Shown here in pieces: positions 1 to 40,330 of a stretch of DNA of 56,540 nucleotides; within the stretch, counting starts at the first letter, position 1; every line of letters begins with the position of its first letter. The position numbers were made by a program, and so were the translations under genes. The notes beneath the pieces were generated by a model. The model was not told the DNA's origin and made no database searches. It worked only from the letters and a program-made list of their open reading frames with translations. Source of the stretch: Patescibacteria group bacterium (GTDB lineage Bacteria > Patescibacteriota > Patescibacteriia > UBA1558 > UBA10009); NCBI GenBank assembly GCA_018817315.1, contig JAHITV010000002.1, positions 1-56,540 of the forward strand. The letters are read 5' to 3'.

Positions 1-79
1 AGAGATCGTATCTGGCATGGCTGGAGTGAATAATGGCTGTCATGCCTAGATAATATCATACGAGAGCTTTTGCGAAAGA

Positions 80-1057
80 TTACGGGTCGCTATCCTTCCC
101 CAATGCCAAGCATTGGGGCTTGCCGCGACGCGGTGTCAAACTCTCTAAGCTGATCGCACCGGCTTTTTTGGCAAGTTGACCAAGCTGATACCGATCTAGG
201 TTCACTCGTCCATCTTCAAAAGGCGAGATGATGGCGACATGAATATTGTTATCGGTAGCAAGCTTGATTGCCGAAATCCAGGAAATCTTCTTTTGATTAA
301 ATTCCCATTCACGGTTCGGAACCTGACCAGAGCCTTTACATTCAAGTATGACGCCCTCAATTATCTTTGCTTCCACCAAACTGGTGAGGATGTTCGGCGG
401 TGTATCAGCCGAAACTTTGATAGTAACAACCTTTGTAGCAAAGTCAGTATCAAGACGTAAACCCTGAACAGACAACACCGGATCAAATTTACGCAGATTC
501 TCACCGAAATAGATACGAGGCCAAGCATGCGCAACAGGATGTCTCCCTGGAGTATGAAAGGCATCAAAATCTGAATCCGCACGTTTAGTCAATCGTGATC
601 CGTCAAGAATCTTACCCATACAAATAGTATAAATGCCAACAATCTTATTGCTAACAAAGCCTTCGGCTGTACGTAGCGTATTCTCAATTTGCATCTTCAC
701 ATCAGAACCAGACTCGTCCTTGGTCATTTGAGCGCCAATGACGAAAAGTGGTTTCTGCAGACTTTGTTTGAAAATCATGCAAAAAGCAGCTGTAGTTTCA
801 GCCAAACTGTCAGTGCCGTGCAAAATAATGAAAGCGTCATGATCTTGATAGACACTCTCAATCTGCTTAGCCATTTTAACACGTTCAGAGTGAAGAATAT
901 TTGTTGAATCTTGCCGGCTTTCAAAATCAGCCAGTTTCAACTTCACTCCATCAGGTACGTTAATACCCTCAAAAAGCTCCTCAGCTGATTTAGCTGGCCT
1001 TAATGGATCACCGACCATACCTAAAGTACCGCCAGTATTAAGAACGAAAACTTTCAT
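80..1057 (-). CDS. ansA: L-asparaginase, type I (AnsA/GatD-like)
   Basis: ORF 80..1069 carries TGGTLGM and HGTDSL motifs of the asparaginase family. Start trimmed to ATG 1055-1057, 6 nt after GAGG; the track start at 1069 is GTG. G+C is visibly higher than the neighbours. Confidence 0.8.
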   Translation of the reverse strand: MKVFVLNTGGTLGMVGDPLRPAKSAEELFEGINVPDGVKLKLADFESRQDSTNILHSERVKMAKQIESVYQDHDAFIILHGTDSLAETTAAFCMIFKQSLQKPLFVIGAQMTKDESGSDVKMQIENTLRTAEGFVSNKIVGIYTICMGKILDGSRLTKRADSDFDAFHTPGRHPVAHAWPRIYFGENLRKFDPVLSVQGLRLDTDFATKVVTIKVSADTPPNILTSLVEAKIIEGVILECKGSGQVPNREWEFNQKKISWISAIKLATDNNIHVAIISPFEDGRVNLDRYQLGQLAKKAGAISLESLTPRRGKPQCLALGKDSDP

Positions 1058-1107
1058 TTTCTGCCTCACTTTCAGAATTATTTTTTTGAATGATCTTTTA
1101 ACGTAGT

Positions 1108-1136
1108 ATTATATCAAATAAATTTATTTTTGTCAA
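1108..1136 (-). promoter_or_regulatory. sigma70-type promoter for the asparaginase gene
   Basis: Minus strand reads TTGACA (1136-1131), a 17-nt spacer, then TATAAT (1113-1108). Both hexamers match consensus exactly. Confidence 0.55.
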
Positions 1137-1186
1137 GTAAAAAACCCAAACAAAAAAACCGCTTACTTCCAAACGTTCTCTACAAT

Positions 1187-1267
1187 AATCCCCAATCCCC
1201 GATTACTAATTACTGATTACCCGTCCGCCTTGGCTACGCCAAGGGCGTGCCGGGCGGGCCGATTACT
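1187..1267. repeat. heptamer-periodic array plus GC-rich hairpin
   Basis: Units aatcccc, aatcccc, gattact, aattact, gattacc span 1187-1221. An imperfect GC hairpin follows at about 1222-1260 (CGCCTTGGC / GCCAAGGGCG). A final gattact at 1261-1267 overlaps the corA stop codon. Confidence 0.6.
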
Positions 1268-2183
1268 AAATTATATCCTTCCACTTTAACCAGACAAAAA
1301 TGCCGACAATCACTACCATTAAACCGCCGAAAATCCACCAAACTAAATTCTCATTATGAATTAAAGGCAATGACTGTACATTCATGCCATAAAGACCGGT
1401 AAAAAGCGTTAAAGGCAACATGGAAACGGAAAAAATCGTCAAAATCTTCATTACCCGATTAAGCCGGTAACTGGTCAGGGATTCGTTAGTTTCATGCAAA
1501 CCGTCTATTAAATCTTTTTCATTGGATAAATTTGAATAAATTCTTTCAATGTAGTCGGAAATATCGTCAAAATAATTAGCCAAATCGCCGCTTAAATAAT
1601 CTTTCTTTAAATTAACTAAACTTTTTATTACAAACCTCTGTGGATCAATAATACTTCTATAAAATAAAATGTTCCTTCGGGCTTGGCCTAAATCTTTGAC
1701 TGACTGGCGAGTGTCTTCTTGATAAACTTTTTCTTCAATCTGGTTAATCTCCTTTGCTAACCAATCAATGATCACAAATGAAGAGGAATAAAGGTGATCA
1801 AGGATATGATATAAAACATGCGCGGCTTTGCCCTGAAAAATTTCATGCTGCAGCTTTTTGTTATTTACTACTCTATAAAAATATTGATTCAATAATTTGA
1901 GCTTCTTTTTTTGAATGGTAATCACGTAATCTTTGCCTAAAAAAATATCCAGCTCATGACTGCCTAATAAGTGGCTATCTTTATAAGTTACGGGAAATCT
2001 TAAAATTATAAAGGCATACATTGCATAAACATCAATCTTTGACCTTTGAGCTTCCCCACGAATATCTTTTATATCTAAAGGATGAAACTTATAGTTATCT
2101 GTTAAATATTTAAAATCTTCAGCCTCCGGTTCGATGATGTTGATCCAGGAAATTTTATTGAATTTTTTAATCTTTAAAGCCAT
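1266..2183 (-). CDS. corA: CorA-family magnesium/cobalt transporter
   Basis: 305 aa with a C-terminal pair of TM helices and the signature YGMN motif (LYGMNV). Confidence 0.85.
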   Translation of the reverse strand: MALKIKKFNKISWINIIEPEAEDFKYLTDNYKFHPLDIKDIRGEAQRSKIDVYAMYAFIILRFPVTYKDSHLLGSHELDIFLGKDYVITIQKKKLKLLNQYFYRVVNNKKLQHEIFQGKAAHVLYHILDHLYSSSFVIIDWLAKEINQIEEKVYQEDTRQSVKDLGQARRNILFYRSIIDPQRFVIKSLVNLKKDYLSGDLANYFDDISDYIERIYSNLSNEKDLIDGLHETNESLTSYRLNRVMKILTIFSVSMLPLTLFTGLYGMNVQSLPLIHNENLVWWIFGGLMVVIVGIFVWLKWKDII

Positions 2184-2192
2184 AACATTAAC

Positions 2193-2375
2193 AAATTCTA
2201 AATACTAAACTCTAAATTCCGTTCGGCTTGAGCTCACGGCCGAAAGCTAAACAAATTCTAATGACCAAAATTCAAATATCAAAACAGCTTTGAACATTTG
2301 AAATTAGAATTCCTGTCTGCCGGTAGGCAGGTTGATATTGTTTAGGATTTAGGATTTCGTGCTTAGGATTTAAAC
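2193..2375. repeat. composite intergenic element: two heptamer arrays flanking two GC hairpins
   Basis: Units aaattct, aaatact, aaactct, aaattcc span 2193-2220. Hairpins are TTCGGC/GCCGAA (2222-2244) and CTGCC/GGCAG (2317-2330). Units tttagga, tttagga, tttcgtg, cttagga, tttaaac span 2341-2375 and abut the gyrB stop codon. Confidence 0.55.
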
Positions 2376-7046: not shown

Positions 7047-7087
7047 AAATTATATACTTTTTCCACCAAAGGCGGATAATTTTAAAC

Positions 7088-8113
7088 TTAAAATTGTTGT
7101 AAGAATCTTAAATCACCTGATTGCAAAAGTCTGATATCATCAATGCCGTATTTCATCATCACTAATCTGGTTAAACCTAAACCAAAAGCAAAACCAGACC
7201 ACTCTTTAGGATCTAAGCCACCATATTTTAAAACATTGGGATGGACCAAACCGCAAGGCACCATTTCTACCCAGCCAGAATGCTTACACACCGGACAACC
7301 TTTACCGCCACAAATTAAACAGTTCACATCCAGTTCAAAACCAGGTTCTACAAAAGGAAAATAACCGGGTCTTAATCTTATCTTAACTTCTCTTTTTAAA
7401 ACCTCTTTTAATAAAACTTTCATCACCGCTATTAAATTATCAATAGAAATATCCTTATCAATCATTAAACCTTCCAACTGATAAAAAGTGGTATCATGAG
7501 AAACATCCGTAGCTTCGTATCTAAAACATCTGCCCGGGAAAACTGCCCTTAAAGGTGCTTGGTATTTTTCTATGGTCCTAACTTGCATATTAGAAGTATG
7601 CGTGCGCATCACCCAGCCAGTTTTATCTTTGATGAAAAAAGTGTCCTGCATGTCTCTAGCCGGATGAGTCGGCGGAATATTTAAAGCTTCAAAGTTGTAA
7701 TATTCTGATTCCAATTCCGGTCCTTCTAAAATAATAAAACCCATGCGAGAAAAAACATCCTCTAATTGATACTGAATAAGAGAATTGGGATGTAAGTGGC
7801 CTTTAATAAATTTTCTGCCGGGCAAAGTAACATCTAACCATTTTTCCTTAGATGAACCAGCTTTTTCTTTTTTGTTTAATTCAAACTTTATTTCAGAAAT
7901 TAACTGATTTAATTCCTCTTTGATTTCGTTGCCCAATTGACCGAACTTGGGTTTTTCCTCTGCCGCCAAATCCTTAACTTGCCTTAAAAGTTTAGTCAAT
8001 TCTCCTTTACGACCCAAATATTTGACCTCTAAATTATGAAGCTCCTTTAAAACCTTGGAATTTTTTATTTCTCTTACGGCTTTTTCTTTTAATTTTGTAA
8101 GTTGATCAAACAT
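7088..8113 (-). CDS. pheS: phenylalanine--tRNA ligase alpha subunit
   Basis: 341 aa with class II core motifs (HPARDMQDTFF, FRYE, GFAFGLGLTRL). Confidence 0.95.
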   Translation of the reverse strand: MFDQLTKLKEKAVREIKNSKVLKELHNLEVKYLGRKGELTKLLRQVKDLAAEEKPKFGQLGNEIKEELNQLISEIKFELNKKEKAGSSKEKWLDVTLPGRKFIKGHLHPNSLIQYQLEDVFSRMGFIILEGPELESEYYNFEALNIPPTHPARDMQDTFFIKDKTGWVMRTHTSNMQVRTIEKYQAPLRAVFPGRCFRYEATDVSHDTTFYQLEGLMIDKDISIDNLIAVMKVLLKEVLKREVKIRLRPGYFPFVEPGFELDVNCLICGGKGCPVCKHSGWVEMVPCGLVHPNVLKYGGLDPKEWSGFAFGLGLTRLVMMKYGIDDIRLLQSGDLRFLQQF

Positions 8114-32017: not shown

Positions 32018-33433
32018 TTAATTTAACTTATTAATAAAATAATCCATAATTTCGGCAATGGCGATTCTTTCCTGTTTCATGGTGTCGCGATCGCGTACTG
32101 TTACTTTTTTATCTTCCAAGGAATCAAAATCAACAGTCACGCAATAGGGAGTGCCGATTTCATCCTGACGGCGGTAACGACGGCCAATTGCTTGAGTTGA
32201 ATCATAATGACACATATATTGCTGGCTGAGTTTTGTGTAAATCTCTTGACTGACCTTTTCCAAATTTTCTTTTTTGGACAAAGGCAGAACCGCGATTTTA
32301 ACCGGCGCCAGACGTTTATCTAATTTTAAAACAACTTCCATTTCTTTCGTGCTTTTTGTAGTAGTAGTTCTGCCTCCTTCAATCTCTGTATAAGCATCAA
32401 CTAAAAAAGCCAAAAGAGAACGGTCAATACCGCCGGAAGTTTCTATAATATGGGGCAAATATTCTTTTTTTGTTTCTTCATCTAAAACTTTTAAGTCTTT
32501 GCCTGAATACTGCTGATGACGACTTAAGTCAAAATCTCCGCGGTTATGTATGCCTTCCAGTTCGCTCTGGTCAAAAGGAAAATTATATTCTATATCCCAT
32601 GCTACTTTGGCATAATGAGCCAATTCATTTTTTTGATGTTCTCGGTATTTTAAATTTTTCCTGTTCAAGCCCAGATTTATATACCACTCTAATCTTTGCT
32701 TTTTCCAATACTCAAAATATTTAGCCGCCTCTTTGGGATGAATAAAATACTGCATTTCCATCTGTTCAAATTCTCTGGTGCGGAAAATAAAATTACCCGG
32801 TGTTATTTCATTACGAAAAGCTTTGCCGATTTGGGCAATACCAAAAGGAATTTTTTTATTAGTTGTCAGTCTGATGCTTTCAAAATTAACATAAATGCCT
32901 TGGGCTGTTTCTGGCCGTAAATAAATCTGCGCAGATTTATCCTCTAAAACTCCCATAAAAGTTTTAAACATTAAATTAAAATTTCTCACTTTTGTTAATT
33001 CTCCGCCACACTCCGGACATTTATTATCATCTTTTTTAAGAGAAGTAGCAGGTTGAAATTCTGGCTTTATACTTTTGGTTTCCAAAAGATGATCAGCACG
33101 AAAACGTTTTTTACAGAACTTGCAATCTACCAAAGGATCAGTAAACCCTTCTAAATGACCGGAAGCTTCCCATATTTTAGGATGCATTAAAATTGCCGAA
33201 TCTAAACCTACAATTTCATCTCTTTGTTGAACCATTTCCTTCCACCATTCCTTTTTAATATTATTTTTAAGTTCCACACCTAAAGGACCATAATCATAAG
33301 AAGAACTTAATCCTCCATAAATTTCCGAAGAAGGAAAAATAAAACCACGGCGTTTACACAAAGAAACTATCTTTTCCATCTTATTATTTTCTGACTGTGA
33401 AGATGGCTGCTTTTTTTTACCTTTTAAAGACAT
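32018..33433 (-). CDS. glyQS: glycine--tRNA ligase (dimeric class II type)
   Basis: 471 aa with RPETAQGIYVNF and FRNEITPGNFIFRTREFEQME motifs and a C-terminal anticodon-binding domain. Confidence 0.93.
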   Translation of the reverse strand: MSLKGKKKQPSSQSENNKMEKIVSLCKRRGFIFPSSEIYGGLSSSYDYGPLGVELKNNIKKEWWKEMVQQRDEIVGLDSAILMHPKIWEASGHLEGFTDPLVDCKFCKKRFRADHLLETKSIKPEFQPATSLKKDDNKCPECGGELTKVRNFNLMFKTFMGVLEDKSAQIYLRPETAQGIYVNFESIRLTTNKKIPFGIAQIGKAFRNEITPGNFIFRTREFEQMEMQYFIHPKEAAKYFEYWKKQRLEWYINLGLNRKNLKYREHQKNELAHYAKVAWDIEYNFPFDQSELEGIHNRGDFDLSRHQQYSGKDLKVLDEETKKEYLPHIIETSGGIDRSLLAFLVDAYTEIEGGRTTTTKSTKEMEVVLKLDKRLAPVKIAVLPLSKKENLEKVSQEIYTKLSQQYMCHYDSTQAIGRRYRRQDEIGTPYCVTVDFDSLEDKKVTVRDRDTMKQERIAIAEIMDYFINKLN

Positions 33434-33477
33434 AATCCTTGATTTTTAAGTTGGTTATTTTATCAGTAACTTTATTT

Positions 33478-33506
33478 ATTATAATAAAATTAACTAAAAA
33501 TTACAA
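33478..33506 (-). promoter_or_regulatory. candidate glyQS promoter
   Basis: Minus strand reads TTGTAA (33506-33501), a 17-nt spacer, then TATAAT (33483-33478). Confidence 0.45.
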
Positions 33507-33521
33507 ATTCTATTTTTTGAC

Positions 33522-33556
33522 ACTTCGGCCCTTCGCTCTTCGGCTACCTCGACCTT
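33522..33556. repeat. GC-rich heptamer-phased array (acttcgg, cccttcg, ctcttcg, gctacct, cgacctt)
   Basis: TTCG recurs with period 7 at the left edge of the high-G+C island. An 8-bp hairpin GTCGCTTC/GAAGCGAC follows at 33571-33598. Confidence 0.45.
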
Positions 33557-33715
33557 TCAATAAATTCAAAGTCGCTTCAAGAAAAGTCGAGAAGCGACAA
33601 GCTCGGAGAGGGCAAACTCAGAGCTTAGGGCTCAGTGTCAACATTGCCTCACACCGAAAGTGCTCAGCACGAGGTGAGTAAGCCCCGATGCTTGCCATCG
33701 GAGTTACCGAATGGG

Positions 33716-33744
33716 TTGACAAATTACCCATAATTATTTATTCT
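33716..33744 (+). promoter_or_regulatory. sigma70-type promoter, island unit 1
   Basis: TTGACA (33716-33721), a 17-nt spacer, then TATTCT (33739-33744). Confidence 0.5.
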
Positions 33745-33784
33745 AATATGAATGGGTTCATTATAGCTAGGAGGAGATTTAGCC

Positions 33785-34162
33785 ATGACTCAAAGTGATT
33801 CTACCCAAGCTTTACCAGCGCCAGATGGAACGGGAAAAACGCGAAAAGCAAGGCAAAAAATTATTAATATGCTGGCTAAAACAATTTGTGATAAGTTGTT
33901 AACAGGCGGTACTGGCAGTGATGTTCTGCATTTTATTGAAAAAATTTTGGAATATGTAAAAAGCTTCCCGCCCCCGCTCCTGCCATCATTAAGCGCTTGG
34001 GAACAACAAGAAACTCAAAAGGGTCCTACTTCGTCACCTAAATACTTTTATATAATAATGGTGACAAATGGATTTGCTGAAAAAGATATTAAGATGTTTG
34101 TCAGACTTGTCAGACTTCATACCACACTACTTATGAAAAAGCGAGCAACGCTGGGTACTTAA
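33785..34162 (+). CDS. hypothetical protein (125 aa)
   Basis: ATG preceded by AGGAGGAG (33769-33776) and followed by a terminator hairpin. No recognisable domain. Confidence 0.45.
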   Translation: MTQSDSTQALPAPDGTGKTRKARQKIINMLAKTICDKLLTGGTGSDVLHFIEKILEYVKSFPPPLLPSLSAWEQQETQKGPTSSPKYFYIIMVTNGFAEKDIKMFVRLVRLHTTLLMKKRATLGT

Positions 34163-34163
34163 T

Positions 34164-34207
34164 CCACCTATATAAATCTGAATACATTAATGTATAGGTG
34201 GATTTTG
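34164..34207 (+). terminator. intrinsic terminator, island unit 1
   Basis: CCACCTATA (34164-34172) pairs with TATAGGTGG (34193-34201), followed by ATTTT. Confidence 0.55.
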
Positions 34208-34268
34208 ACTTTGGATCAAGATTTGATTTAGTTTTATTGTCAACCCAGTCCCGAGCTTGTCGAGGGGG

Positions 34269-34297
34269 TTGACAAAACATTAAATTTAATTTATTAT
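34269..34297 (+). promoter_or_regulatory. sigma70-type promoter, island unit 2
   Basis: TTGACA (34269-34274), a 17-nt spacer, then TATTAT (34292-34297). The -35 box lies in the 3' arm of the inverted repeat TTGTCAACCC (34237-34246) / GGGTTGACAA (34266-34275). Confidence 0.6.
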
Positions 34298-34384
34298 ATG
34301 ACATTATCCAATCTGATCTTTTCACTTGTAAATAAAAAATTTGAGATAAAACAAGATTAACGGAAAAAAGCAGGAGATTTGAAA

Positions 34385-35443
34385 ATGAATGTACTCCTTG
34401 TAGCAAACATGGTGGCTTCAAAACAAGCGTTTGAAATGCTCAAAAAAGAGTTAGAAAAACGCGGCCATCAAGTCTTCCCGTTCCTTAGTGCAGGAAAGCT
34501 GGAGGAAACTCTAGTTACAGATATCGCCCCGATAATAGCGAACAGTAATCTTATTGTACTTGGGATGTCATCTGACGAAAACTTGGCCCAACAAGAGCTA
34601 GGTATCGCAAAAATTGCCAAAGAAAATAATACACCTTACTGTTTCTATGGCGATACTTACAGCTCATGCGCACGTCCGCATCTCCAGCAAGCTCTTGAAA
34701 AAGCCGGCACCCTCTTTGTTATCAACGGAGAGGAAGCTGAAAAGGCAAGTATGGTCTTCCCGCAGCTCAAGGTGGTGGTATCCGGAAATCCCACCTGGGA
34801 AGAATTCTGCTTCCCTAAATTCACTCCGAAACTAATCCGGCATTCACTCTCCATTGCCGAGGACGAAATAGTTATTCTGGTTCCTTTTGGGAAGATGTTT
34901 GATATCAACCGACTGCACCTCAACGGAGTAATCCAAGCCGTTGATCTCGCCGGTGGACAAACACCTAATGGCAAAAAAATTCGGATTATTGCCAGTTCTC
35001 ATCCAGGCGATCCTGTTGAACCAGAAAAATATTGCGGATTAGTGGAACCTCATCAGTTTACCAGGATTATACCCAGCGCCTTGGCACCGACGTTGGGCTT
35101 ACTGCCTGGTGTAGACCTGGTAATAGGATCTGCTTCAACCGTAGGCGTTGCCGCCGCACATCAAGGTATTTCAGTAATTGATTTTCTTACTAAAAAAGCA
35201 CTGGATCGCCTTGAGCAAAGCACCGGCCAAAGAACTTGGGCGCCTTGCAACCTGGGAGCTTCCTGCATGGTTACTGAATCAGAATCAGAAAGAGAATTAA
35301 TGAAAGCAATCCTGGCCCTCCTTAAGGATCCTACGTCAATGCGCGAGCGGCAGAAAGCTGTTTATCCTGCCCCAACTAAGATCGGTGCAGCCGTCGAAAT
35401 TATGGCTGACACCATTAAACAGCTCGCTCAAGAAATCACCTAA
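34385..35443 (+). CDS. uncharacterised two-Rossmann-lobe (GT-B glycosyltransferase/epimerase-like) protein, paralog A
   Basis: Start moved to ATG 34385, 8 nt after AGGAG (track start is TTG 34379). An alternating beta-alpha pattern and the motifs VVSGNPTWEEF and IGSASTVGVAAAHQGISVI resemble GT-B/2-epimerase-like folds. Function unassigned. Confidence 0.6.
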   Translation: MNVLLVANMVASKQAFEMLKKELEKRGHQVFPFLSAGKLEETLVTDIAPIIANSNLIVLGMSSDENLAQQELGIAKIAKENNTPYCFYGDTYSSCARPHLQQALEKAGTLFVINGEEAEKASMVFPQLKVVVSGNPTWEEFCFPKFTPKLIRHSLSIAEDEIVILVPFGKMFDINRLHLNGVIQAVDLAGGQTPNGKKIRIIASSHPGDPVEPEKYCGLVEPHQFTRIIPSALAPTLGLLPGVDLVIGSASTVGVAAAHQGISVIDFLTKKALDRLEQSTGQRTWAPCNLGASCMVTESESERELMKAILALLKDPTSMRERQKAVYPAPTKIGAAVEIMADTIKQLAQEIT

Positions 35444-35473
35444 CTATCACTTCATTCACAAAATCTCAACATA

Positions 35474-35504
35474 GGGATTGGCAACGTGCCGATCCCTTTT
35501 TTTT
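35474..35504 (+). terminator. intrinsic terminator, island unit 2
   Basis: GGGATTGGCA-ACG-TGCCGATCCC (10-bp stem including one G-U pair) followed by T8. Confidence 0.7.
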
Positions 35505-35532
35505 ATTGTCAAGCCCTTTGTGAAAGGCTTGC

Positions 35533-35561
35533 TTGACAAAACATTAAATTTGATTTATGAT
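35533..35561 (+). promoter_or_regulatory. sigma70-type promoter, island unit 3
   Basis: TTGACA (35533-35538), a 17-nt spacer, then TATGAT (35556-35561). The -35 through spacer (TTGACAAAACATTAAATTTRATT) is nearly identical to unit 2. An inverted TTGTCAAGC lies upstream at 35506-35514. Confidence 0.6.
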
Positions 35562-35644
35562 GCAGTATAATTTAATTGCTCATTTTGTTATAAATTCCGA
35601 AGAATTCTGACAATAAACCAAACCGACGAAAGCAGAGGTGACAC

Positions 35645-36655
35645 ATGAACTTATTATTTGCAGGTTTTGATTTGGCAGCAGCCAAAAACCTAATCATGGT
35701 GGCTCAAGCTGCCCAAATAAAAAACCATCAGGTAACATTCATCGGTAACCAATTAATGTCCAGATTCATTATTGGCGACAAACCTGATGCTATTATCACT
35801 GGTCTAGCTTCGTTTAAAACCGAAAACGAACTAATCTTCGCTACCATGGCCAGAGATTCCAAGATTCCTCACTTGGTCATTGCCGAAACACATTTTTCCT
35901 GGGCCCGTCCCAAAGCCGAGGGTCTGATGACGCACGCGATTTGCGCTGTAGCTTCGCCAGCCGAAATCGCGGAAGCTAAAAAATGGGGTTACAGCGATGC
36001 CGTCTATCTAGGTGGTCCTCCGCTCTGGCAAGCTTTTAGAAGATTAAAGCCAGCCCAACTGGTCATTCCAGAAGATACCAAAGTCATCCTGGTCGGTGGC
36101 ATCAAAGACGCCAGACTGACCGACATGATGCTGGCCGAGGTAGCCAAATCCATAAAGGCTTTGGCTGCTACTCATGGCATCAAGTTGCAGCTGATCTTTC
36201 GGCCGCATCCCAATGAACCAGCGGAAACTTATAACGAAGCTCGACGGAAAGGAATACTGGAAGGAGTTGAACCTTTACCTTCTGATGCTCCGACAGACAA
36301 CTTGATTTCAGAGGTAGACGTTTCAATCTTTACTTCCGGAGCCATGGGAACGATTATAGCCCCGATCCTGCGAAAACCATCTATCTACTACGAAGATGAC
36401 TGGGTCTGCAAGCGCATGGTTAGTCAGATCGGTCGCAAGGACTGGCTACCAGCTGAAGAAGGAGCTTTGATCAAAGCCACGCCCGAGACTTTGACTGCTG
36501 AGCTGGAATGGATGCTCAAGCTCAAAGAAAAAGAATTATCCGAACACCACGAACAATTATCTGCTTGCCAAGCCGGCGTCTATCCTGATCCTAAGCCCCT
36601 ATCTTCACCTGAGGAAGAGATCCTTTTCTTCATCGAGAAAACTTGGCAAAACTGA
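35645..36655 (+). CDS. uncharacterised two-Rossmann-lobe (GT-B-like) protein, paralog B
   Basis: 336 aa with ATG 6 nt after GAGG. Same length class and domain order as paralog A (for example LGGPPLWQAF versus VSGNPTWEEF). Distant paralogy judged by eye. Confidence 0.6.
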   Translation: MNLLFAGFDLAAAKNLIMVAQAAQIKNHQVTFIGNQLMSRFIIGDKPDAIITGLASFKTENELIFATMARDSKIPHLVIAETHFSWARPKAEGLMTHAICAVASPAEIAEAKKWGYSDAVYLGGPPLWQAFRRLKPAQLVIPEDTKVILVGGIKDARLTDMMLAEVAKSIKALAATHGIKLQLIFRPHPNEPAETYNEARRKGILEGVEPLPSDAPTDNLISEVDVSIFTSGAMGTIIAPILRKPSIYYEDDWVCKRMVSQIGRKDWLPAEEGALIKATPETLTAELEWMLKLKEKELSEHHEQLSACQAGVYPDPKPLSSPEEEILFFIEKTWQN

Positions 36656-36687
36656 TCATTCGGAATCCATTACGAAATCTCACCATA

Positions 36688-36717
36688 GGGATTGGCAACA
36701 TGCCGATCCCTTTTTTT
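36688..36717 (+). terminator. intrinsic terminator, island unit 3
   Basis: GGGATTGGCA-ACA-TGCCGATCCC followed by T7. Differs from the unit 2 terminator by a single base. Confidence 0.7.
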
Positions 36718-36719
36718 AT

Positions 36720-36748
36720 TTGACATAATAAATTTCACCTTCTATAAT
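36720..36748 (+). promoter_or_regulatory. sigma70-type promoter, island unit 4
   Basis: TTGACA (36720-36725), a 17-nt spacer, then TATAAT (36743-36748). Confidence 0.6.
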
Positions 36749-36794
36749 AACTTATTAATTCAAATCTGATCATTTCAAAAAAGAAAGGGGAAAC

Positions 36795-37724
36795 ATGAAA
36801 GCCCTTTGTTCTGTACTCATCTTTCTGTTCTTGTCCATTAGCGGTTTTACTCAAGTGACAGAAATGAATTGCGGCGATACTGCCACAGGGAATTTTGGTC
36901 AATCCGGAAATGAATATCTTTTTGGCTTTGAGAATCATTATCAAAGCCAATTGAACATCATACTTATCTGTGAGCAATCACATCTTGATCTCTTTTCCCG
37001 GCTACCTGAGTTACCTTGGCCATCAGACACTTGTTGGCTTGCCGAAGGATACGGGCAAATTGATATTGCCTCTCTTCCCAAAGGCACCTATTATATCCGG
37101 GCAACAGGAATTGGTCCATTTCAAATGCGACTTTATTGTGAGGAGTATCAACTTCCTGTTGAGCTAACCGTTTTTGAAGCAACCGCAGGCAATGGACAAG
37201 TGACACTACACTGGCAAACAGCCAGTGAGAAGGACAATGACTGCTTTGAATTGCAACGCCAAACAGAAAACAGCCAATGGATAACCATTGCAGAAATTCC
37301 CGGCAGCGGCAACAGCCAAACAACTATCAACTATGAGTATATTGATCAGGCAGTTGTTAATGGTGTGACCTACGTTTATTGTCTACTGTCACGCGACTTA
37401 AACGGCACTATCCATGATTACGGACAAACAGCAGAAGCTACACCTCTAACGCCGATACCAACAGAGTATGCGCTTCACCAAAACTTCCCTAACCCCTTTA
37501 ATCCGCAAACAAGTATTTCGTATGCCTTGACGGAAACGGGGTTCGTGACTTTAAAAGTTTACAATGTCATGGGTCAGGAAGTGGCAAATTTGGTAGATGG
37601 CCAAATGGAAAGTGGCCATCATACAACGACGTTTGACGGCAAAAATCTGCCAGCCGGCATTTACTTTTACACACTGAAAGTGGCTAATTTCACCAGCACC
37701 AAAAAAATGCTGCTGGTAAAATAA
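36795..37724 (+). CDS. secreted protein with a T9SS type A C-terminal sorting domain
   Basis: 309 aa with signal peptide MKALCSVLIFLFLSISGFTQ. A middle module (LTVFEATAGNGQVTLHWQTASEKDNDCFELQR) is typical of FCB-group cell-surface proteins. The C-terminus LHQNFPNPFNPQTSISYAL...GIYFYTLKV...KKMLLVK matches the Por/T9SS CTD pattern. Confidence 0.75.
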   Translation: MKALCSVLIFLFLSISGFTQVTEMNCGDTATGNFGQSGNEYLFGFENHYQSQLNIILICEQSHLDLFSRLPELPWPSDTCWLAEGYGQIDIASLPKGTYYIRATGIGPFQMRLYCEEYQLPVELTVFEATAGNGQVTLHWQTASEKDNDCFELQRQTENSQWITIAEIPGSGNSQTTINYEYIDQAVVNGVTYVYCLLSRDLNGTIHDYGQTAEATPLTPIPTEYALHQNFPNPFNPQTSISYALTETGFVTLKVYNVMGQEVANLVDGQMESGHHTTTFDGKNLPAGIYFYTLKVANFTSTKKMLLVK

Positions 37725-37755
37725 AAAAGGGTAGATCAAAAGACTCCCAAACAAA

Positions 37756-37789
37756 AGCCCGATTGTGGTTAATCGGGCTTCTTTATTTT
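37756..37789 (+). terminator. intrinsic terminator (bidirectional; also closes glmS on the minus strand)
   Basis: AGCCCGATT-GTGGTT-AATCGGGCT followed by TCTTTATTTT. On the other side it is preceded by an A-rich run. Confidence 0.6.
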
Positions 37790-39595: not shown

Positions 39596-39724
39596 AAATT
39601 ATATTTTAGCAGATTTGACATAAAAAAACATCCTTTAGAAAGGATTTGACATAATATCCATAATATAATTAAATAAGCATTGATTGAACATTCACAACAT
39701 AACACCTTAAAGAAAGGGTATGTC

Positions 39725-40330
39725 ATGCTTAATAATTCCAGATTAAGGAACAACACAGCAAACATTTTAACTATGACGCGCGTTGTTCTTTTACCCCTTA
39801 TTATACCCACTTTTTATTGGAGTATATGGGATATTTTCACCATGCGCTGCATAGCATTTGTGCTGATGATGATTGCTGAATGCACTGACATGCTAGATGG
39901 ACACATTGCCAGAAAACTTAAACAAGAATCTAATCTCGGGAAATTACTTGACCCTCTTGCAGACTCGATTTACCGTAGTAGCATGTTTATCGTGTTTGTT
40001 GGACTAGGATACATGCCTTTTTGGTTTCTCTATGTCCTTGTTCCCCGTGATATCACTGTGGCCTATGTACGTACATTATGTTCTCTACGAGGCGAAGTTG
40101 TATCTGCAAGGAAAAGCGGAGTAATTAAGGCATTTTTCCAAGGTGGAGCAATGCTCGGAGTGATGATACTTGACCTTATACGCTTCTGGCCAGGAGCAGA
40201 AAGTACAAGTACAATATTTGACACACTTATTCTCCTTTTATTTGCCGCTGCTGCCCTGTACACTCTCTACTCATGGTATGACTATCTTGTTGGTTCATCC
40301 AAAACATGGGTAAAGCTGATACCGCATTAA
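39725..40330 (+). CDS. CDP-alcohol phosphatidyltransferase family protein (PgsA-like)
   Basis: DMLDGHIARKLKQESNLGKLLDPLADS matches the DG(x2)AR(x8)G(x3)D(x3)D signature. Start set to ATG 39725 (track start is TTG 39680). Plus strand, with intermediate G+C. Confidence 0.75.
   Translation: MLNNSRLRNNTANILTMTRVVLLPLIIPTFYWSIWDIFTMRCIAFVLMMIAECTDMLDGHIARKLKQESNLGKLLDPLADSIYRSSMFIVFVGLGYMPFWFLYVLVPRDITVAYVRTLCSLRGEVVSARKSGVIKAFFQGGAMLGVMILDLIRFWPGAESTSTIFDTLILLLFAAAALYTLYSWYDYLVGSSKTWVKLIPH

Follow-up and report, generated by a model that had tools for sequence, protein, structure and literature searches.

On a contig of 56,540 nucleotides from a Patescibacteria group bacterium (JAHITV010000002.1 of assembly GCA_018817315.1, called the window hereafter at its full length), two neighbouring genes, paralog A (34385..35443) and paralog B (35645..36655), have coding sequences whose DNA identity has fallen to the random level, while the promoter and terminator modules that frame them remain almost identical. 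How can control elements stay alike around genes that have drifted so far apart, when regulatory DNA normally decays first after gene duplication? The explanation preferred here is that the modules of A and B have been homogenised locally, and that a palindrome in which the -35 box of each promoter is buried would act as a hairpin; taken as a whole, this explanation is given a little less than an even chance. All of its components are ordinary, namely sigma-70 promoters, intrinsic terminators, a palindrome over the -35 box and enzymes of the glycosyltransferase-B (GT-B) fold, and what is unusual is the combination, concerted regulatory blocks around genes at random-level DNA identity. The phenomenon is real, and it is a modest regulatory curiosity, not a new kind of system. 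Its interest lies in that it provides a clean natural example of control modules that evolve in concert while the controlled genes do not, and, from the uncultured, regulator-poor bacteria of the Candidate Phyla Radiation (CPR), a compact case on which the recent idea of coupled terminators and promoters can be tested.

Flank modules and coding sequences compared

The promoter module of each of the two units has a left-arm block, TTTTATTGTCAA, an inverted copy of the -35 box, which lies at 34232..34243 (+) in front of A and at 35501..35512 (+) in front of B, partly within the T-run that ends the terminator of A; it is identical at 12/12 positions. Then come the promoter cores, TTGACA-AAACATTAAATTTAATT-TATTAT at 34269..34297 (+) for A and TTGACA-AAACATTAAATTTGATT-TATGAT at 35533..35561 (+) for B. 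From the -35 to the -10 box 27/29 positions are identical, including 16/17 bases of the spacer, and both cores agree with the consensus at 11/12 positions and have the features of sigma-70-type promoters, a TTGACA-like -35 box, a TATAAT-like -10 box and a spacer (17 nt in each) within 16-18 nt. Behind the genes, the terminator modules at 35458..35505 (+) for A and at 36672..36718 (+) for B agree at 44/48 positions (54 nt at 89% by the repeat finder). That of A consists of a conserved 5′ flank of 15 nt, ACAAAATCTCAACAT, a stem at 35473-35497 and T8; that of B has its stem at 36687-36711 and T7, and abuts directly on the -35 box of the next gene, called unit 4 below. Both have what defines an intrinsic terminator: the stem of 11 bp, of which 6 are GC pairs, closes on a loop of 3 nt and is directly followed by the T8 or T7. 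The substitutions in the blocks fall on one spacer base, on position 4 of the -10 box, on the loop, on the flank and on the length of the T-run.

Between these blocks, A and B are as different as shuffled sequences: identity is 43% in the interior of the inverted repeat, 59% in the 5′ untranslated region (gapped, against 52% for shuffles) and 53% from the stop codon to the terminator. In an ungapped profile, the number of identical positions per 10 nt falls from 8-10 to 3-5 right after the -10 box, and climbs again about 18-20 nt 5′ of the terminator stem; a weaker patch of similarity, AACNGANNAAAGCAG, about 13/18 by manual reading, lies near the ribosome-binding site. Within the genes, codon-aligned DNA is 42% identical and third codon positions 34%, which is the random level. 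An initial annotation of this DNA had proposed that two homologous genes have diverged further than their flanks. All the sequences that it quoted were found where it had placed them, the proteins are indeed homologous, with 24% identity over the full length (BLASTP E = 1e-14), and the alignment bore out the contrast, with sharply bounded blocks at 92-100% against the 42% of the coding DNA.

Are these modules just a generic promoter and a generic terminator? Each module pattern has exactly two matches in the 56.5 kb of the window, against 0.00 expected from shuffles, and blastn-short, run on the window and on more than 200 fetched loci, turned up no third one. The pattern of the terminator module had no match in the genome, viral and metagenome collections. 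A 19-mer of the promoter module gave four viral matches, of which two were read; both look like coding sequence, and the viral matches are therefore treated as chance and not as real copies. As the window has each module twice and the collections have neither, the modules cannot be called generic. An assembly artefact was rejected because the copies are short and non-identical and because host-style sequence stands on both sides of the islet in which the two genes lie. Pairing of the anti-Shine-Dalgarno-like 3′ flank with the ribosome-binding site of its own gene was not significant (p 0.17 for A, p 0.59 for B).

Origin of the flank identity

When did the flanks become alike? Paralog A shares 33-41% of its residues with homologues in Saccharibacteria and Patescibacteria, and paralog B is 65% identical to one orthologue in Parcubacteria (locus L001), while A and B share only 24% with each other; the split of A and B is therefore older than the divergence of those lineages. 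The orthologues do not carry the modules. At L001, which is of the B type, the spacer and the terminator stem are unlike those of the window, and each of the A-type loci L003, L005, L092, L093 and L217 has a spacer and a terminator stem of its own. Thus, the flank identity of 92-100% is specific to this lineage. Concerted evolution, or gene conversion, is recognized by a closer resemblance between the paralogs of one genome than between either of them and its orthologue, and this is what is found here for the flanks. Of the two interpretations offered in the initial annotation, gene conversion or recombination acting on modular flanks is the one that fits better, owing to this lineage-specific identity; the other, a shared regulator, is taken up with the palindrome below.

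A and B belong to a compositionally distinct islet whose genes are predicted to form separate transcription units, each provided with a Shine-Dalgarno site, an intrinsic terminator and a promoter of the sigma-70 type close to the consensus. It is supposed that the control modules of A and B were homogenised within this lineage, not kept unchanged since the duplication. Two routes can be imagined. By the first, short tracts would be converted or copied between neighbour units. By the second, an ancestral promoter-A-B-terminator (P-A-B-T) operon would have been duplicated in tandem, after which the first copy lost its B and the second its A; duplication followed by such complementary loss would account for identity that ends right after the -10 box and resumes shortly after the stop codon. 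The homogenisation would have acted on flanks with weak family-wide motifs, TTTRATT before the -10 box and a AAAATCTC-like sequence before the terminator stem, and its outcome would be that both enzymes have matching expression signals, each insulated from the other.

As to these motifs, TTTRATT stands directly 5′ of the -10 box at 34286-34292 (A) and 35550-35556 (B) in the window, from position 2920 at L092 and from position 2918 at L093. Of 31 TTGACW-N17-TANNNT sites in 218 kb of CPR DNA, four have it at the end of the spacer, namely those of A, B, L092 and L093, which without exception belong to genes of this family; perhaps the motif is peculiar to the promoters of the family. On the terminator side, a 9-mer, CAAAATCTC, lies a few bases 5′ of the stem both in A (35459-35467) and at L217 (3164-3172), the locus of a 40%-identical orthologue, and anti-Shine-Dalgarno-like, C-rich variants of it occur in B, L001 and L002. 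When flanks are ranked against the 5′ flank of the A terminator, that of the orthologue at L217 comes out best of 58 (score 19 vs 9.3 +/- 2.4), and for the whole terminator of B, that of L001 comes out best of 56 (score 25 vs 15.6 +/- 3.6). The comparison suggests that selection kept the flanks similar enough for occasional short-tract conversion between adjacent units.

Could selection have done all of this by itself? If every base were functional as promoter and terminator code, the modules might have been kept since the ancient duplication of A and B by pure purifying selection. The block boundaries do coincide with the start of the -35 box, the end of the -10 box and the terminator, every substitution falls on a tolerant position, and sub-motifs shared by the whole family exist. 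However, other spacers and other terminator stems are found at orthologues whose divergence is younger than the split of A and B, and the 11-bp stem is identical throughout, with no compensatory change, which is implausible at a protein identity of 24%. Purifying selection as the sole cause is considered quite improbable.

A different kind of origin would be mobility. The units are modular, the genes are bounded by inverted copies of TTGACAA/TTGTCAA and the composition of the islet is foreign, so that one may think of integron-like cassettes, of miniature inverted-repeat transposable elements (MITE) or repetitive extragenic palindromic (REP) elements, or of an invertible promoter. But there is no recombinase or transposase among 20 flanking genes, and the modules exist in only two copies in 56.5 kb and in none of the three collections; mobile cassettes are largely refuted and keep hardly any probability. 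An integron cassette with its attC site was rejected because TGTCAAC and GTTGACA misfit the RYYYAAC/GTTRRRY cores, the units have their own promoters and the flanks hold no recombinase. An inverton was rejected because the arms are 16-19 nt apart, which makes inversion meaningless, because the -10 box lies outside the arms and because no recombinase was found in the flanks. For MITE and REP elements the copy numbers just given were decisive.

The palindrome over the -35 box

In both units the -35 box lies in the 3′ arm of an inverted repeat, as the initial annotation had pointed out. In A, the arms are TTGTCAACCC (34237-34246) and GGGTTGACAA (34266-34275), so that the palindrome covers 34237..34275 with 10-nt arms and a 19-nt loop that contains an inner stem; in B, they are TTGTCAAGC (35506-35514) and GCTTGACAA (35531-35539), and the palindrome covers 35506..35539 with 9-nt arms and a 16-nt loop with the inner stem CCTTT/AAAGG. 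The pair TTGTCAA-N(5-35)-TTGACAA occurs twice in the window against 0.00 expected, and the heptamer alone is not enriched there (14 vs 13.3 expected). Both palindromes beat shuffles in DNA folding, with -12.2 kcal/mol (z -4.7) for A and -11.1 kcal/mol (z -4.2) for B, and their RNA folding is likewise significantly above shuffles; the full hairpins have stems of 14-15 bp, short loops and AT-rich flanks. The extensions of the arms covary, being AAC-CC/GG-GTT in A and AAG-C/G-CTT in B, and both interiors, unrelated as they are, form inner stems. The half-sites are N25 apart in A and N20 in B, a difference of 5 bp or half a helical turn. The spacer between the -35 and -10 boxes starts with AAACAT and is T-rich only in its 3′ half (AAATTTRATT). 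Read leftward, the inverted -35 copies have CTTGAT and GCACGT at the -10 position, that is, no usable -10 box, and both point into the upstream terminator. Among about 45 promoter-like sites of CPR bacteria, inverted repeats of at least 8 nt that overlap the -35 box were seen solely at A, B and L001. That the left arm of A might be a decayed copy of a whole promoter was rejected, since about 11/22 positions beyond the arm agree by manual count, which was judged near random for AT-rich DNA. At other CPR sites, inverted copies of the -35 hexamer are found a few to 20 nt 5′ of TTGACA, at L009 (minus strand, 11482), L010 (7755-7788) and L169 (6501-6534), and these are commoner than a rough chance expectation.

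The initial annotation had seen the same arrangement in unit 1, the gene upstream of A, but the likeness is weaker than it had claimed. At its promoter-like site, TTGACA-N17-TATTCT at 33716..33744 (+), the repeat finder places GGGTTGACAA (33713-33722), the inverted complement of 34237-34246, and in the longer form GAATGGGTTGACAA (33709-33722) pairs with TTGTCAACCCAGTC (34237-34250) over 14 nt at 93%. The proposed partner GTCAAC at 33638, however, belongs to another palindrome, about 125 nt long, whose right end it forms, and 77 nt separate it from the -35 box of unit 1.

Where could such a repeat come from? L001 carries TTGTCAAG-N18-CTTGACAA, with the spacing as in B and an unpaired interior (z -0.9). 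There, each arm serves as the -35 box of an apparent promoter, and the two promoters diverge: the rightward one is TTGACA-N16-TATACT, and the leftward one, TTGACA-N17-TATACT, faces small open reading frames for membrane proteins, and the divergent-promoter geometry is found again at a Roizmanbacteria locus, L169. Unlike at L001, the promoters of A and B in the window receive co-directional transcription from the upstream unit, and the hairpin form is found only in the window. It is proposed that the palindrome was derived from a back-to-back pair of -35 boxes, of which the leftward promoter would be dead here while the repeat was extended to a hairpin of 14-15 bp. Such a hairpin might work in the manner of promoter-coupled terminators, in which the DNA of a stem-loop coincides with the -35 box of the next promoter (Fletcher et al., bioRxiv 10.64898/2026.08.19.745784). 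Or, it might serve as an insulator against read-through from upstream; possibly it also tunes initiation, and it would not be the operator of a rigid dimer.

Does the hairpin have any role at all? The left arms could be decaying divergent promoters, and the palindromes could have been perfected by neutral template switching, since quasi-palindrome correction is an established mutational process. A non-functional relic of this kind agrees with the real divergent promoter pairs of the same geometry at L001 and L169, and with the upstream inverted -35 copies without a -10 box at L009 and L010. It is difficult to reconcile with left arms that are 12/12 identical though the neighbouring sequence has been randomised, and with the extra pairing gained by each of the two unrelated interiors. 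We regard it as decidedly unlikely.

The regulator proposed in the initial annotation would bind the TTGTCAA...TTGACAA half-sites as a shared operator, occlude the -35 box and co-regulate A and B (in the orthologue, a divergent gene pair). No base of the half-sites differs between A, B and L001, the heptamer spacing N20 is common to B, L001 and the unrelated Saccharibacteria locus L010, and palindromes of promoter-coupled terminators can double as transcription-factor sites, as in the case of LexA at yobI/ruvA (bioRxiv 10.64898/2026.08.19.745784). Nevertheless, the spacing is not fixed, N25 in A against N20 in B turning the half-sites by half a turn, and a protein site needs neither covarying arm extensions nor stem-forming interiors; covarying arms and inner stems in unrelated interiors suggest that structure matters here, and not a sequence that a protein recognises. 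No domain of a transcription factor was detected in the 20 flanking genes (about 11-15 kb) or in the four islet genes. Unit 1 is an ORFan without a detectable DNA-binding fold, and was rejected as the regulator on account of having no homologues and a low-confidence model. A scan of 185,000 genomes for TTGTCAAG-N18-CTTGACAA showed, among the matches listed, many phyla scattered at chance level and no sign of a regulon, and in the orthologue of B the repeat amounts to the two back-to-back -35 boxes. All of this has weakened the operator, and we hold it for a minor alternative that is still worth keeping in play, because the N20 spacing recurs in B, L001 and L010.

It might also be thought that the arms are extruded as a cruciform under negative supercoiling, by which the -35 box would be taken out of the duplex and the promoter closed; an engineered Escherichia coli promoter of this cruciform-switch kind was reportedly made by Horwitz and Loeb in 1988. 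Stems of 14-15 bp, short loops and AT-rich flanks would suit such a switch, but the arms, short and broken up by bulges, make extrusion costly in energy, and such a switch is considered very improbable. More far-reaching is the idea that the palindromic -35 box, TTTRATT and the AAAATCTC-like flank together constitute a family-specific, structure-dependent control element, which would be conserved across CPR lineages, would couple termination to the next initiation as a hairpin/cruciform switch or as the site of a CPR regulator, and would be actively homogenised between neighbours. We doubt it strongly.

To come back to local homogenisation with a hairpin role for the palindrome, several points weigh against it. 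A continuous converted tract is not seen: the interior of the palindrome is at the random level and differs in length between A and B. An interior that is unrelated in sequence and length between identical blocks means that a single event of conversion or duplication is insufficient. This is the main weakness, as neither route alone explains the unrelated interior, and an extra event or fast turnover of the hairpin tip is needed. The edges of the blocks are functional edges, the start of the -35 box and the end of the -10 box, which is equally expected from pure purifying selection, and the orthology signals of terminator and flank rank first, with modest margins. As for the hairpins, no T-tract follows them directly and the terminator scan does not call them, a canonical strong terminator stands just upstream of that of B, and the promoter of unit 4 has no such hairpin. 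Finally, the collections searched gave no close relatives of this genome for a population comparison.

The islet, its enzymes and known systems

The islet is a run of four plus-strand genes at 33785-37724, flanked by glyS and glmS, with a GC content of 40-45% against about 33% in the surroundings; the minus strand carries all window genes of at least 120 amino acids except those of the islet and of 39680-40330. Each islet gene has a promoter-like site (33716, 34269, 35533 and 36720; 10-12/12 consensus) and its own hairpin terminator. A terminator T-run abuts the next -35 box directly at 1136 (-), 25104 (-), 40960 (-) and 36720 (+), with a coupling distance of about 36-38 nt, and such abutment at several sites of the window suggests that this is the usual junction style of the genome. 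The gene of unit 1 (33785..34162 (+), 125 amino acids) is preceded by a strong AGGAGG ribosome-binding site; its ORFan product has no homologue among 5.8 billion proteins, and the AlphaFold2 (AF2) model, with a predicted local distance difference test (pLDDT) of 52, is uninformative. It ends in a terminator-like hairpin at 34161..34212 (+) with a weak T tail, ATTTTGACTTTGG (-9.1 kcal/mol, z -3.9). Upstream of unit 1 stands the palindrome of about 125 nt already mentioned (33517-33641, within a structured region at 33505-33715), which is GC-rich and imperfect, has the termini TTGACACT and AGTGTCAA and shows strong folding whichever strand is taken (z -3.1 and -4.4); nothing in Rfam matches it, and no second copy was seen.

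Unit 4 has a promoter with 12/12 consensus, TTGACA-N17-TATAAT at 36720..36748 (+), where no palindrome stands between the T-run and the -35 box. Its gene (36795..37724 (+), 309 amino acids) encodes a signal-peptide-like N-terminus and a C-terminal Por_Secre_tail domain for sorting by the type IX secretion system (T9SS; E 2.3e-12, and TIGR04183 E 2.1e-13). The T9SS is typical of Bacteroidota-type double-membrane bacteria, and its sorting domain in a Patescibacteria genome hints at a foreign origin of the islet. At the right edge, a hairpin terminator at 37755..37780 is placed to serve both unit 4 (+) and glmS (-). Around the islet, the 20 flanking genes tested (about 11-15 kb) are all housekeeping genes, and no recombinase, transposase or transcription factor is among them. 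PADLOC and PHROG gave no match for any islet protein; Rfam gave no family at gathering thresholds in the whole 56.5 kb, with chance-level matches only (E up to 10) across 33400-34400, and there are no tRNA genes in the window. The glycyl-tRNA synthetase (GlyRS) of the window is 66% identical to that of a Patescibacteria metagenome-assembled genome, which marks the host as a CPR bacterium, and the collections hold no close relative of the host.

What are the two enzymes? Paralog A (352 amino acids, plus strand) and paralog B (336 amino acids, plus strand) belong to one uncharacterised family. An AF2 model of A from an eight-sequence alignment has a pLDDT of 91.5 and a predicted template-modelling (TM) score, pTM, of 0.87, and shows two Rossmann-like domains that match solved GT-B structures. 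In Foldseek the best matches are MshA, UDP-GlcNAc 2-epimerase, BshA and LpxB (E 1e-11 to 1e-8, probability 1.00, TM 0.57-0.68), with E 3.7e-11 to MshA and 2e-10 to the 2-epimerase; the structure prediction called for in the initial annotation, run on A, thus returned a GT-B fold. Sequence identity to solved GT-B structures is 12-16%, and the best match of a profile search in the PDB has E 0.08. Neither paralog rises above the cut-off of any Pfam or NCBIfam model (TIGR04396 reaches 15 bits against a cut-off of 125). By sequence and model, A and B are anciently diverged paralogs of a predicted GT-B-fold family, glycosyltransferase- or 2-epimerase-like.

The profile search of this family recovered 1,397 cluster representatives, 378 of them with E < 1e-30, and the loci obtained from genomes belong to Saccharibacteria, Parcubacteria and other Patescibacteria; no relative of B was found in the metagenome contigs searched. 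Two homologues are neighbours of genes for NeuB, Epimerase_2, CTP_transf_3, Wzy_C and UDP-glucose dehydrogenase, that is, of nonulosonic-acid or polysaccharide clusters. From gene neighbourhoods and fold, the family is probably engaged in surface-glycan synthesis. A sizeable GT-B-fold family, with about 1,400 cluster representatives and a link to surface-glycan loci, is hereby flagged as having no Pfam model. At L002, the homologue of A (P0002) is one of a gene pair, 30-1115 (-) and 1148-2269 (+), whose divergent partner is a distant relative (26% identity, E 2e-4), and an inverted repeat, GTCAACAA-N34-TTGTTGAC, lies across the short gap between the two. At L001, the gene after the orthologue of B encodes a Fur-family regulator, and a palindrome like a classical Fur box, TGATAATGATTATCA, is found in its promoter region (7059-7108).

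How does this locus compare with what is known? The enzymes resemble MshA, BshA, UDP-GlcNAc 2-epimerase and LpxB in the two Rossmann-like domains of the model and in homologues that lie in glycan clusters, whereas no named sequence family is reached by A or B. Prophage morons are units of promoter, gene and terminator; the islet genes are similarly self-contained, with their own promoters and terminators in a segment of foreign composition, but there is no phage context and no PHROG match. From gene conversion between bacterial paralogs the locus differs in that only regulatory blocks of 12-48 nt are homogenised, in an interrupted tract, and the coding DNA stands at the random level. With back-to-back divergent sigma-70 promoters the palindromes share opposed TTGACA boxes about 20 bp apart, and at L001 and L169 there are true pairs with both -10 boxes; in the window, by contrast, the leftward copies have no usable -10 box and face the upstream terminator.

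A further comparison is with promoter-coupled terminators, which are enriched between tandem genes of related function and in which promoter-bound polymerase modulates termination (bioRxiv 10.64898/2026.08.19.745784). This class is marked by a T-tract that comes right after the stem and just upstream of the -10 box, and by termination about 10 bp before the start site. Unlike these, the stems in the window are not directly followed by a T-tract, a separate canonical terminator stands immediately upstream, and the repeat whose 3′ arm holds the -35 box corresponds, in the orthologue, to two divergent -35 boxes. In view of the missing T-tract, of the strong terminator before the hairpin of B and of a unit 4 without hairpin, the elements are likened to promoter-coupled terminators and not classed as members. 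The likeness is, on the other hand, found in several features: the 3′ arms contain TTGACA, so that the DNA of the stem-loop overlaps the downstream -35 box; the elements stand between tandem genes (unit 1 and A, A and the paralogous B); the spacer is rich in T in its 3′ half, right in front of the -10 box; and the palindrome could double as a protein site.

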